Positions 1,340-50,737 of a DNA stretch of 64,000 nt are shown piece after piece. Below the pieces are notes generated by a model. That model saw nothing but the letters and a program-made list of their open reading frames with translations. It made no database searches and was not told where the DNA came from. Within the stretch, counting starts at the first letter, position 1. Each line of letters begins with the position of its first letter. Position numbers and translations under genes: made by a program. Origin of the DNA: Octopus vulgaris (taxonomy: Eukaryota); contig OX597820.1 in NCBI GenBank assembly GCA_951406725.2, positions 42,098,001 through 42,162,000 on the forward strand. Direction: 5' to 3'.

Positions 1340-1690
1340 TGTAGGCACACACGCACACGTCAATGACACCAGACCCCTTCTACGCACACATGCACGCTCT
1401 CACCTATACACGCACGCACACCTTCATTTTGGGATCACCACTACTTTCTTATCTCCCCTTCTACGTAGCTCGCCTGTGTGTCCCCTCTGTCTGCCATTCG
1501 CCATGATAGATCGCTAGTCACTAAACCTTTTTCTATTTTCTCTCCTTGTTTATTTCTGTGTTCCTTTCCGTGGAAGAGCGTAGGCTCGAAGCGAAAGACT
1601 TTCTCACTTCCCGAGCGTTAAACGAATACATCTGTTTGTTATTTACTCACCCGTCTTCATCTTTTGTCTTTTTCTTTTGTAAATTCTTAC
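1340..1690 (+). mobile_element. Penelope-like element 3' end / pseudo-LTR fragment (same family as 3840-4490 and 9545-10740)
   Basis: Shares the terminal block GAAGAGCGTAGGCTCGAA...CCCGAGCGTTAAAC..ATAC..GTTTGTT..CACC.GTCTTCATCTTTTG..TTTTGTAAATT with the minus-strand GIY-YIG element at 9545-10740; ends directly in (TA)n. 5' boundary approximate. Confidence 0.7.
1564..1597 (+). ncRNA. degenerate minimal type I hammerhead-like motif in PLE pseudo-LTR
   Basis: CTTT-CCGTGGA-A-GAGC-GTAG-GCTC-GAAGCG-AAAG: stem I CTTT/AAAG and stem II GAGC/GCTC are retained, core is mutated. Confidence 0.45.
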
Positions 1691-3684
1691 TATATATATA
1701 TATATATATATATATATATATATAGAGAGAGAGAGAGAGAGAGAGAGAGGGAGATAGATAGATAGATAGATAGATAGATAGATAGATAGATAGATAGATA
1801 GATAGATAGATAGATAGATTTTGTGTGCACAAGCGTACCCGTTCTTATCTGAAGAGTAGGGACAATTAGATAGTGAACAAGACTAACTCTCGACAGTTTT
1901 TGCTGTAAGTGAGTGTTACAGATATTAGAGGAATTAAACTCCATAATGTAAGTAAATTATTTAATTAAATGTTGTTGTATGTGCCAGCCTCTGAATTTTT
2001 ATGTAAGAGTACTTTTAATTATATTCTACTAAATTCAGGATTCTTGCATCCCATTCTGAAAACCAGCCTCGCCCTTTTTAAATCGTGATTTGACTAGGAA
2101 AAATTTTGCTTCAATCATTTGGATGGTTTGCTCTAAATAAGATATTATTAGCCATTCTACAGAAGGTCATTTATTTAGATTTGTAGAGACGCCATTCATT
2201 GATCTGCAACGACATTTACATTTTGACCTTTCTATTGAAATAGGTCTCGCTGCTGCGTTTCAAAATCTCATCGCTGATGCACGAGGTATCCTGTCAGTTG
2301 GTGTTCGTTCTTGAATGCGGTGTACAGAGGGATACAGTGCGTCATAAGTTCATTGTTTTCATTTTCTCCTAAAATTCATTTCTTTTCCTCAACTTTCTTT
2401 ACTTTTATTTTCAAAATTAATTTCCGTCGCATCTCGTCTGCGATGTCAATAGGTTATTCAAACTTAGATTTTTCTGTGATTGTTTTTGTTTTATATGATA
2501 AATCTGAATAAATATTAACTTCAGTAATTTATGAAAGAAAACAGAAGAAAAAAAATGAATAGTAAATTTTCTTTAATTTAGAGAGTAATACGAAATAATC
2601 ACAATGCGTAAAAGAATATGATTTGCAGTTGTTGAGCCAAATATGAAGTTATTTTGGGAAGAAATATCGCAAGTGGCCGAGTGTAAAGAATCAGGTTGCA
2701 AGCCGATTTTCTGAATTTTCAATTTAGTCATGAATGTCTTTACTGTATCTTTAAAGTTAACAATATATTTCGAAGGCTGGTTAAGAAATGTTGGATTAGA
2801 AATGATGGTCCAGCATTCATCTTCAGATTGTTACTTTCTGAGATAGAATCCTGTCGCGGTTACTTTCACCAAGTGTGTTTGATATAATAAATTACATTTT
2901 ATGTACAAGTGACACTTCAAGTAACTGCATACCATTGATCCATATGAAGTTGATATAGTAAGTGTGTATTGTAGTTAAGTTGGAAAATTTAGTGAAGATG
3001 AAGCTAAGTATTAATCAGTGAAATCAGATTTTCGGCAATGGAAATAGAAAAAAAAAATTAACGAGTTTTAAATTGAGTGGAAATCGAAAACTCGGAAGTT
3101 AGGTGCAAGATATGCAGAAGACGGCAACTGGCGAAAGCTATAAGATATGGAAGGAAGAGAAACCAAGAGAAATGTCAGCCGTTTTCTCATCAGTCTTGCT
3201 ATCACTTAGTCTTTCTTAGCTCATCAATCTTATTGCACATCTTATATAATTTTACTACGATAAATGTAACAACCGGGTTAAGTCTTCAAATTAATTGGAA
3301 CAGACAGCTTCCGATCATTACTAATTGGGAATCCAAACGATAAAAAAGAATTCAACATAGTAATAATACAATCAAACATTTATCAAATTGAGTCACCTGA
3401 CAGTGCCTAATCGATTACAAGTTGGGTTGAAAAAACGGTACAAAGCTAAGTCATATTTAACATCTAAAGAACTTAAATTAAATAAATTCAACTTGTATAT
3501 TATATTTGTATGCGAGTCTTTCTTTATCCATATTATCCATGTGCACACGCACACACACATACATACAAGCACACCCCCACACACAAACACACACACATAC
3601 ACACCACACATAAATATGCCTATATATATGCCAATATATATGCCAATATATATGCCAATATATATATATATATATATATTTTCC

Positions 3685-3790
3685 TAACCGATCAGACCAT
3701 CAGATGTTGTTACACATCGCTGGTCACAATGCGTTCGCATTGTTTTAGCCTTCGAATGACGCCACCCCGCTGGCTAAGCGAGCAGGCCAA
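3685..3790 (+). mobile_element. short GC-rich retroposon (SINE/LINE 3' tail) fragment embedded in (TA)n
   Basis: CCGATCAGACCATCAGATG...GACGCCACCCCGCTGGCTAAGCGAGCAGGCCAA is a CpG-rich island flanked by TA repeats on both sides; family assignment is by recognition only. Confidence 0.45.
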
Positions 3791-48360: not shown

Positions 48361-50560
48361 CATTACTCAACTGCTTACGACTGTTGAAAATCGTTGCAGT
48401 GCAGATCATCTTGCATATAAGCTTTAAACGAACTTAGTTGTTTGTCATCTTTCGTGAAATGCTTTATCATTATTGTTGCTGTTGCTGCTGTTATTGATTT
48501 TCTCTTCGTCGTCGTCGTCGGTTTTATTTATCTTATTATTATTAACGATTAATTAAAAGCCACACAAATCTGCTAGTCTTTTTCACACTAGTTAACATTT
48601 CCCAACTAGTTAACCCCAAAGCACCAGTCTGGACATCAACAAGTAGCATTTAGTCATCCGAATCGTATTAAGATTGAGTATTCTGTAGGACATTAGATGG
48701 GAACCACCTACGTTGTTAACAATTCAAAGTGGTCGGCTACAAACCACGAATTTGTGATTAGTGCGGTCAACCTTGATAGATTACGCAGGCTGGGGCCCCC
48801 AGTTACTGGAAGCTGAACTTGTCATTCCCAGCACGTCAGGTTTACAGAGCGCATTAACAAATCGGGCAGGGTTTGAGTGGGAAACTTTCAAGAGCCAATG
48901 GTGGTACACTTGAAAGGAAAAGGGGCTATTAGATTACAGTCGATACAGCTTCTTAATGAAATATTATTGGGAGAGTGTAGACTGAAATAAGATTAATATT
49001 TGTGTATGGATGTGGATGTGTGTGATGAGATAGAAAATGAGAGAAATATAAATAGAAAGAGACAAAAGTATTATATAGCAGAATCACAATGCGAATAAAC
49101 TCTGATTATCGACATGTAGCTTCGTGTTTAACACAGAAGCTGAAATACATGTGACACTTTTCACTTAAATTTTCTCTATACTGTCATAGTGATTTTCCGT
49201 TGCCTATAAATATAAACTATGGTGCCCGATTGACCGATTCTTGCCGTTATCGGTTTGTGAGACAAGTAATTTATTTTGAGCAGTAACCTATTTCATTTGG
49301 CATCAAGTCAGATTACCGAATTGGAGTTCTGTGATTTTTAATATGGCTATTTTTATCTAATGATAGAAAGTCTATAGAACTGATACACTAATAAATTCGT
49401 CTAGGTACTTGTTTAATCCATTTTTATTTCAACACGCATGTAAATTAAATAATAAAGAAAAAGTTCTTAAATTATCTCACTAAATGTTTAGACGCTATTT
49501 AGTGCAGAGTTTGGATTGAACGTTCGTACCACTTCGTACCACAATATAGAAAAAAGTATCTATCTACCACTCTCCCTCTTCTGCTGTCTCTCACTCTTTA
49601 TTTCCCTCCCCCTCTCTCTCTTTCGCTCTGTATACTCACTCACACACACATACACACGTGCGCACGCACAGACGCATACGCACACACAAACACACGCACA
49701 CACAAACACACGCACACACCTGTTTTCGACGGATTCTAACTCACCGTTACTGTACAACATTTTCCAGGAATAATTAATAAAAGGTTGAACTATATAACAG
49801 AATTATGTGTATGACGTTATGTGTTATGTGGACCATTCATTTTGAGAAAAAAAGAAGGGAATTAGTAAATTCTTACACACTTGATTAATTTCCAACTACA
49901 AAATGATAAAATAACAAACTTACCAGGTAATGGATCTGCGATACCCTCAAAGTTGAATGTCCTTTTAAAACAGAATTACGCATTTAATCATCCATGAACA
50001 CTAATTTTCATAAATAATCGGATTTGTGTATTTTACTCATGAAATATCACAACTTGCATGTAAGTGAATATATCACACTCTACTATAAAACTCGATTAGT
50101 GAGTCATATGTTAAAATTGTAAAATAAGCTTATCACTATGATTCACAATGTTCAGGAATATTTTGCTTATATATTATGATGTTGCCCGCGTAATTACATA
50201 ATCTGAAGTTTGGATTAAAAGTCAGATTCTGATGAATTATACAGCTTACATCGCGCACAGCTGTGAGGAAACCTGTAAACATTTGGAAAAGTCAAGAAAA
50301 CGGAATACTCGAATAAAAGAATGTTATAATTTCGGTATTCACCGGCCGATGAAAACAAACCATCTAAAAAGTGCATACCATGAGAATTAATAATCAGGGA
50401 ACAAGACCTGTAATTTCAGCATTAATTCATCATAAATGTTTTCCTTCACCTGGATCTCAGATTGCACATCTGCCGGACATCTTATTCATATCTGCTGGGC
50501 TGCTGATCGCTAGAAGAGTGCATGACATATGTTCCATGTATGTATATATGTATGTATGTA

Positions 50561-50737
50561 GTAAATCAAGGTAAAAAAAAAAAACGAAGAACAAACGCAA
50601 GGGAAAACAACGCGAGGACGTGGTACATGCAAAGTATTAGCAGACGCTCAGGGAAAGAGAGGTAGTTTTTACGTTTCGAGCAAGGCCCTTCGTCAGAAAC
50701 AGGAGACGGAGGAAAGTCCAAGAGAAAAGGAAGACAA
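50561..50737 (-). mobile_element. Penelope pseudo-LTR fragment flanked by a ~100-bp direct duplication
   Basis: Carries the HHR at 50665-50700 and the CCCTGAGCGTC..CTAATAC tail related to the Neptune-like termini; flanks 50454-50560 and 50738-50845 are direct repeats. Confidence 0.75.
50665..50700 (-). ncRNA. minimal type I hammerhead ribozyme (Penelope type)
   Basis: GTTT CTGACGA A-GGGC-CTT-GCTC GAAAC GTA AAAAC: canonical core, stem I, stem II, loop-less palindromic stem III (AC/GT), typical of PLE minimal HHRs. Confidence 0.8.

Follow-up and report, generated by a model that had tools for sequence, protein, structure and literature searches.

The subject of this analysis is a 64-kb window of the Octopus vulgaris genome (assembly GCA_951406725.2, contig OX597820.1, positions 42,098,001 to 42,162,000), in which hammerhead ribozyme motifs lie close to microsatellites. 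We hold it about 88% probable that these motifs mark Penelope-like elements (PLEs) that were truncated from the 5' side and survive as 3' ends. On this reading one family is Neptune-type (A), four are Hydra-clade (B to E) and one is short and likely non-autonomous (F), and all carry the minimal type I hammerhead; insertion was likely into TA-rich microsatellites already in place, through the GIY-YIG endonuclease and reverse transcriptase (RT) of the elements themselves. The observations that carry this reading are the identity of the families, the linkage of A to E with an endonuclease at the C-terminus, 3' ends that are fixed at 35-110 nt beyond the cleavage site, 5' ends that vary, tails in some copies, inverted partners and an excess of microsatellites. 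As far as sequence can tell, hammerhead-bearing PLE stumps at microsatellites are real and the pattern is largely known; to the published pattern the present data add five PLE families and a rough census.

Hammerhead families and Penelope-like endonucleases

The motifs were sought with a descriptor of the minimal type I hammerhead, which permits a single bulged base in either strand of stem II and tolerates one core change, U4C or A6U. It finds three complete motifs in the window (23523 and 50696 on the reverse strand, 45707 on the forward strand), far beyond chance: there are none in the reversed window and two in total over 100 shuffles. Family profiles, each built from 24 loci with the window's own query copy excluded, recover nine copies. 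Genome searches with six window stretches gave 40-62 scored matches each, out of 326-3981 candidates. The initial annotation had listed six main hammerheads, whose coordinates are correct, and seven degenerate ones; nine of these 13 sites fall into the six high-copy groups A to F. The degenerate sites at 1564, 3930 and 9637 are copies of family A. Those at 25870, 28578, 29191 and 42560 score 2, 1, -2 and -2, all within the range of a null in which 31 of 600 random positions score at least 2, and are assigned to no family. Site 42560 had no second match in the genome search, and the other three had no relatives in the 1.55 Mb compared, except 28578 and 29191 with each other, these being a local 80-bp duplication. 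The proposal of several stem families thus holds, with six of them, while some of the supposedly separate sites merge: 45205 and 45703 are an inverted pair of one family (B), and 1564, 3930 and 9637 are one family related to that of 50665 (F).

The window belongs to a 2.80-Gb genome of 227 contigs and has a GC content of 34%; microsatellites make up 7.0% of its bases, against 6.5% in a genome sample of 80 evenly spaced 10-kb stretches (800 kb). This sample holds 23 intact minimal hammerheads, against none when reversed and 0-1 in each of 20 shuffles, and 58 family copies (A 23, F 15, E 11, D 5, B 3, C 1). Extrapolation gives ~200,000 family remnants genome-wide (bootstrap 130,000-290,000) and ~80,000 intact-looking motifs; most genomic copies are decaying relics. 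The nine copies per 64 kb compare with 4.6 expected (bootstrap P=0.13), an ordinary density, and the window is therefore no special archipelago of ribozymes, as it had been portrayed. The random sample also holds further hammerhead variants (L187:9688, L194:2234, L232:1840, L257:9936), some of them outside A to F or in divergent subfamilies.

Stem I is complementary in all six families, with five different sequences; those of B to E are unrelated to each other yet paired. Stem III is palindromic or nearly so, and the layout is that of the minimal type I hammerhead: stems I and II, a palindromic or absent loop III, and GAAAC...GUH. Two checks had been named at the outset. On stem covariation, 95% of cells are paired and a single compensatory change (C-G/G-C) separates A from F, a signal that with 10 sequences is weak alone. 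Rfam gives no match in the window at gathering thresholds and, by E-value, no hammerhead among the 150 listed of 280 matches. Only for C, D and F do minimum free energy folds of single copies show stems I and II together, and those of dimers are inconsistent; neither is used as evidence.

Family A is, by its motifs, a Neptune-type PLE. Upstream, its copy at 9637 continues into the broken remains of a Cx4CxxC linker and a GIY-YIG domain (~10240-10830), so that the Neptune-like endonuclease remnant claimed for the window is indeed there. When 20 matches to this endonuclease piece were extended, they gave PLE RT-linker-endonuclease frames, several with PLE RT motifs upstream, in the Neptune-type order of RT, then a CX2-5CxxC linker, then a C-terminal GIY-YIG domain. 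The A hammerhead is present in 21 of 31 loci chosen for the A endonuclease (three pairs overlap) and a PCx4CxxC linker in 14 of the 31. Pfam matches to RVT_1 (E=7e-5) and GIY-YIG (E=0.005) are both below curated cut-offs; among the 300 of 381 open reading frame (ORF) pieces of the window searched against Pfam, only a Tc1/mariner remnant was found and no GIY-YIG domain.

For family C, 14 of 24 endonuclease loci carry the family's hammerhead downstream on the same strand, several with an RT-thumb region upstream, and a CxCx5C linker is found in 17 of 25 loci. Linkage for B, D and E was found by searching with the 5'-most known part of each family: the endonuclease lies upstream in 7 of 30 long B copies and 6 of 30 long D copies. 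The CxCx5C linker recurs in B (L325, L385) and D (L350, L351), and the RT-thumb region precedes the endonuclease in copies of C and D. Near full-length copies, L380 of E and L384 and L385 of B, each have an RT core followed by a C-terminal endonuclease. DKT stands in place of DKG in L380 and L385, the C and D copies being too short to reach it; YRDD is seen in L380 and L384 and not in L385. RT is thereby reached upstream for A, B and E. The neighbours of the L380 RT in a protein atlas include HTH_animal/RVT_1 clusters, and BLASTP of Hydra-type against Neptune-type RT gave no significant similarity. Insertion at (TA)n and a hammerhead in the 3' repeat are found in B to E, more weakly for B. Taken together, these motifs suggest that B, C, D and E are Hydra-clade elements and not Naiads. 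The piece at 29265-29740, which had been read as a Naiad-like remnant, belongs to family C: the label fails because this family has a C-terminal endonuclease behind a CxCx5C linker, with the RT-thumb upstream and a hammerhead downstream, in place of the N-terminal endonuclease of Naiads, which are reported to be without hammerheads (Craig et al., 2021; PMC8557442).

Optional tails occur in 8-12 of 25 copies of B to E, and inverted partners in 8, 9, 13 and 15 of 25 copies of B, C, D and E, respectively; together these are the usual anatomy of a PLE insertion. The B tail of L385 lies before the ORF and leads into it. The same full-length copy (L385:3650-3740) starts after (TA)n within hammerhead stem III, ~6 nt before the cleavage site, a single case. 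Copies of E are 98-100% identical in their upstream part. The claim that the type I hammerheads are PLE-linked is thus borne out for A to E. The idea of a community of hammerhead-only parasites is not, since five of the six families continue upstream into their own PLE endonuclease and F alone fits it.

Microsatellite adjacency and rival explanations

Among 22 sampled motifs with downstream room, 18 have a microsatellite at most 120 nt from the cleavage site, against a background of 16.6%. In the window seven of the nine copies have one 0-110 nt past the cleavage site, in agreement with the earlier statement that most carriers end at microsatellites; 45707 has none and 9637 only a short imperfect TA run. 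A control with short interspersed elements (SINEs), also named in advance, points the same way: a microsatellite lies within 30 nt of 38 of 57 family 3' ends versus 19 of 93 SINE 3' ends, and within 120 nt of 48 of 57 versus 29 of 93. SINE 5' ends abut microsatellites in 27 of 91 cases, and a second SINE gives 0 of 9 and 3 of 12. The 5' flanks of the carriers are enriched as well (19 of 56 against a background of 5.7%), and different repeat types (TA, CA, TG and tetramers) follow one and the same family. Stumps of different PLE families are found stacked in one TA tract at L227 (seven copies), L190, L294, L373 and L171.

A mechanism can be proposed for this arrangement. The endonuclease would nick AT-rich DNA at a TA-rich site, as suggested by work on another PLE (Frangieh et al., 2024; PMC11167929), and the RT would begin within the RNA, at either of two positions shortly downstream of the hammerhead, giving either the short end or the end plus tail. 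Each insertion would then begin 35-110 nt past the cleavage site, and early termination by the RT would leave a stump still holding the ribozyme motif. Such an internal start downstream of the hammerhead would explain why even the shortest products contain the motif and why the microsatellite sits at a family-specific distance downstream; and since the whole motif is kept across the cleavage site, uncleaved RNA would have been the template.

That the motifs are chance products of an AT- and microsatellite-rich genome, their adjacency being mere microsatellite density, deserves next to no credence. Microsatellites are frequent in this genome, Rfam has no match, and chance does account for four of the degenerate sites; but the excess of descriptor matches in the sample over its reversed and shuffled versions, the existence of multi-copy families with complementary stems and an adjacency far above both background and SINEs stand against it, and for the nine family copies it is already refuted. 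Quite improbable, too, is that a telomerase-like RT makes the 3' microsatellite itself, by slippage or repeat addition at the junction, so that the tract was never a prior target. The 3' adjacency (37 of 56) exceeds that of the 5' side (19 of 56), and ATAT follows directly on 11 of 20 A ends and 19 of 25 F ends, but the strong enrichment of the 5' flanks, the differing repeats behind one family, the stacking of different families within one tract and a (TA)n preference already published for Hydra PLEs all count against it. Several points nonetheless weigh against insertion of PLEs at prior microsatellites as we have framed it: the excess of the 3' over the 5' bias just given; the weak association of family B, with 15 of 43 copies within 15 nt of the short end (tail copies counting as misses); and the empty site, for which contigs over 23000-24100 gave no bridge across the insertion, so that we infer rather than observe that the microsatellite came first. 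Copies also cluster, 14 of 58 in the 800-kb sample lying within 150 nt of another family, and p-values are therefore overstated, the effect still being large. On the side of classification, the clade labels are drawn from motifs, and the E linker reads CxFx5C, Phe replacing the second Cys in all three long copies that reach it (L379, L380, L381). Family E is strongly TA-associated despite this variant.

The short carriers might instead be hammerhead elements in their own right, non-autonomous in the manner of retrozymes or SINEs and dependent on borrowed PLE enzymes. For F, where alone this is plausible, we give it even odds. F is ~210 nt long, is related to the 3' end of family A and is abundant (15 of the 58 copies in 800 kb). 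In 15 of 51 copies it and its subfamily begin at a common 5' position, which lies 68-89 nt to the 5' side of the hammerhead anchor; none of the 51 copies collected, without a genome-wide search, extends past that start with family-specific sequence, and what lies upstream matches SINEs or other family copies. F may be non-autonomous on these grounds, and would perhaps be a unit bounded by an internal transcription start and the point at which the RT begins. No autonomous partner for it was found among the collected copies, again without a genome-wide search, a point against the main reading. For A to E, the 5' ends spread from ~10 to >400 nt (a noisy measure) and long copies reach the endonuclease; a fixed 5' end was considered for these families and is not supported, the measure being inflated by low-complexity flanks. 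Nor are there tandem units, which define non-LTR retrozymes: the retrozymes invoked for the window would form tandem arrays, yet no head-to-tail hammerhead units are seen in it, flanking direct similarity is found in only 6 of 150 family loci, and the partners of family copies are inverted, not head-to-tail. Truncated PLEs therefore remain our reading of A to E.

Core variants and the copies of the window

The CUGANGA core given for all motifs in the initial annotation is found in B, C, D and F, but family A reads CUGUNGA and family E CCGAUGA. Position 6 is U in 24 of 24 A sequences and position 4 is C in 25 of 25 of E; U4C is also found in part of F. All four bases occur at position 7 among A-like copies, yet 21 of 22 have U at position 6, and U6 stands in 21 of 23 rows from endonuclease-bearing A loci. 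By core, the 23 intact sampled motifs divide into 7 canonical, 7 A6U and 9 U4C, so that 16 of 23 are altered. The core changes of the two lineages would likely weaken cutting. Reduced activity is described for a viroid carrying U4C, and slow cleavage in Mg2+ for a phage hammerhead with A6C (PMC3088659, PMC7151607). The palindromic stem III predicts, as a model, cleavage as dimers only, and weakly. Fixed A6U or U4C in PLE hammerheads was not found in print, a search for A6U/U4C leading only to a twister study and Perreault 2011. The two cores match none in the Craig supplement (PMC8557442).

A6U and U4C lineages beside canonical sisters in one genome offer a ready comparison on whether cleavage matters, with E as a young candidate. 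The lineage-fixed changes may be new, or may already be listed in a 2017 study by Lunse et al., which reportedly covers PLE-associated hammerhead variants. One could go further and suppose that whole, very successful PLE lineages fixed core changes (A6U in all Neptune-type subfamilies, U4C in young E and part of F) while keeping the stems and other core bases, the hammerhead being selected as an attenuated or non-cleaving fold recognised by the RT, and F being a SINE-like non-autonomous PLE cut down to that ~210-nt recognition unit; we advance this tentatively and consider it doubtful.

Three family A copies lie in the window. A 3' stump with a damaged hammerhead (1564) occupies 1498..1689 on the forward strand, with (TA)n at 1691. 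A second (3930), at 3839..4159 on the reverse strand (profile match 3839-4042), has lost the 5' half of its hammerhead and ends in (TA)n; its CA-rich 3' untranslated region (UTR) may reach ~4510. The longest, 9546..10830 on the reverse strand (profile match 9546-9760), has a CA-rich 3' UTR, a hammerhead at ~9636-9672 with the A6U core, and the broken linker and endonuclease described above. Family D is represented by a 3' stump at 23433..23600 on the reverse strand (profile match 23433-23544) with a complete hammerhead (core 23523, cleavage nucleotide 23473) and (TA)n 42 nt downstream.

The family C 3' region at 28950..29135 on the reverse strand (profile match 28950-29124) is inverted relative to the broken family C endonuclease with its Hydra-type linker at 29265..29740 on the forward strand; the two likely belong to one insertion. 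In this copy (28996) the (TA)n tract sets in at the cleavage site, so that stem I has lost its 3' strand; other family C copies retain that strand. A flank duplication of ~100-120 bp (28553-28657 and 29141-29264), between the inverted C end and the endonuclease piece, may record a switch of template or else be what is left of a long target duplication. Family E contributes a 78-nt 3' stump at 43022..43099 on the reverse strand, between two (TA)n tracts, whose core (the site given as 43055) is damaged and reads ACGAUGA. The head-to-head inverted pair of family B spans 45130..45935 on both strands, with hammerheads at 45248 (reverse) and 45707 (forward), profile matches at 45130-45335 (reverse) and 45607-45810 (forward) and a palindromic junction at 45440-45583; the forward copy runs on into the tail/5' leader.

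The family F element at 50562..50737 on the reverse strand (profile match 50576-50751) has a complete minimal hammerhead with its core at 50696 and is flanked by an 82-bp direct repeat of 85% identity on the forward strand (50454-50535 and 50738-50819), each repeat followed by (ATGT)n. This is possibly a long target duplication, though not a general one, and would imply that the microsatellite predates the insertion; such repeats are no commoner than in controls. Long target-site duplications as a rule were rejected (6 of 150 loci against 5 of 144 cross-locus controls).

Elsewhere in the window, 34152-35565 on the forward strand holds a broken Tc1/mariner transposase (matches to HTH_SB, HTH_Tnp_Tc3_2 and DDE_3). 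It is split by a ~200-bp repeat, present twice in tandem (34373-34786) and found very often across the genome; 33893-34127 and 35691-35938 form inverted repeats. A very abundant SINE-like family with an internal microsatellite lies at 52873-53280, 56280-56660, 23603-23813 and 37236-37572; it is this family whose 5' ends adjoin microsatellites in 27 of 91 copies.

Comparison with known elements

Hydra-clade PLEs (Craig et al., 2021; PMC8557442) agree with B to E in the C-terminal GIY-YIG domain, the CxCx5C linker, DKT, (TA)n insertion, and an inverted truncated partner and tail. The Hydra rows of File S2 of that work also agree in a nearly palindromic stem III of 3-4 bp and in one additional base ahead of GAAA. 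It lists Hydra-1_Obim of Octopus bimaculoides with a (TA)n preference; the (TA)n bias of Hydra PLEs, an octopus family included, is hence already in print. B to E differ from the published elements in comprising four distinct families at high copy numbers, and family E further in its U4C core and the Phe for one linker Cys. Motifs of 13-15 nt from B to E were not found in the supplement, where line breaks can hide matches.

Neptune-type PLEs (Cervera and de la Pena, 2014; PMC4209133) have CUGANGA-A, a G10.1-C11.1 stem II, GAAAC-GUH and no stem III loop, a layout that the hammerheads here match apart from their core changes. There, as here, thousands of single copies come from truncated PLEs, and those minimal hammerheads are weakly active as dimers; the CX2-5CxxC linker has been linked to the microsatellite bias. 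Family A differs in having U6 throughout, a change absent from the rows of Figure S3 examined.

In mechanism there is a likeness to Poseidon, a PLE of Anolis (Frangieh et al., 2024; PMC11167929), whose endonuclease prefers AT-rich DNA, whose RT begins at two internal positions of the RNA, both downstream of the hammerhead, explaining the tail, and for which uncleaved RNA is the substrate, hammerhead cleavage being dispensable in vitro. Internal starts at two sites, an optional tail, AT-rich nicking and an uncleaved template would be the points of agreement; Poseidon belongs to another clade, however, and its mechanism is carried over here by analogy.

Finally, non-LTR retrozymes (Cervera and de la Pena, 2020; PMC7229834; Li et al., 2026, preprint) resemble F in being short and non-coding, and carry type I hammerheads while presumably using PLE enzymes. 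They consist of tandem 150-450-bp units with canonical hammerheads and give circular RNAs, unlike the copies described here, which are single or inverted and whose hammerheads are minimal.

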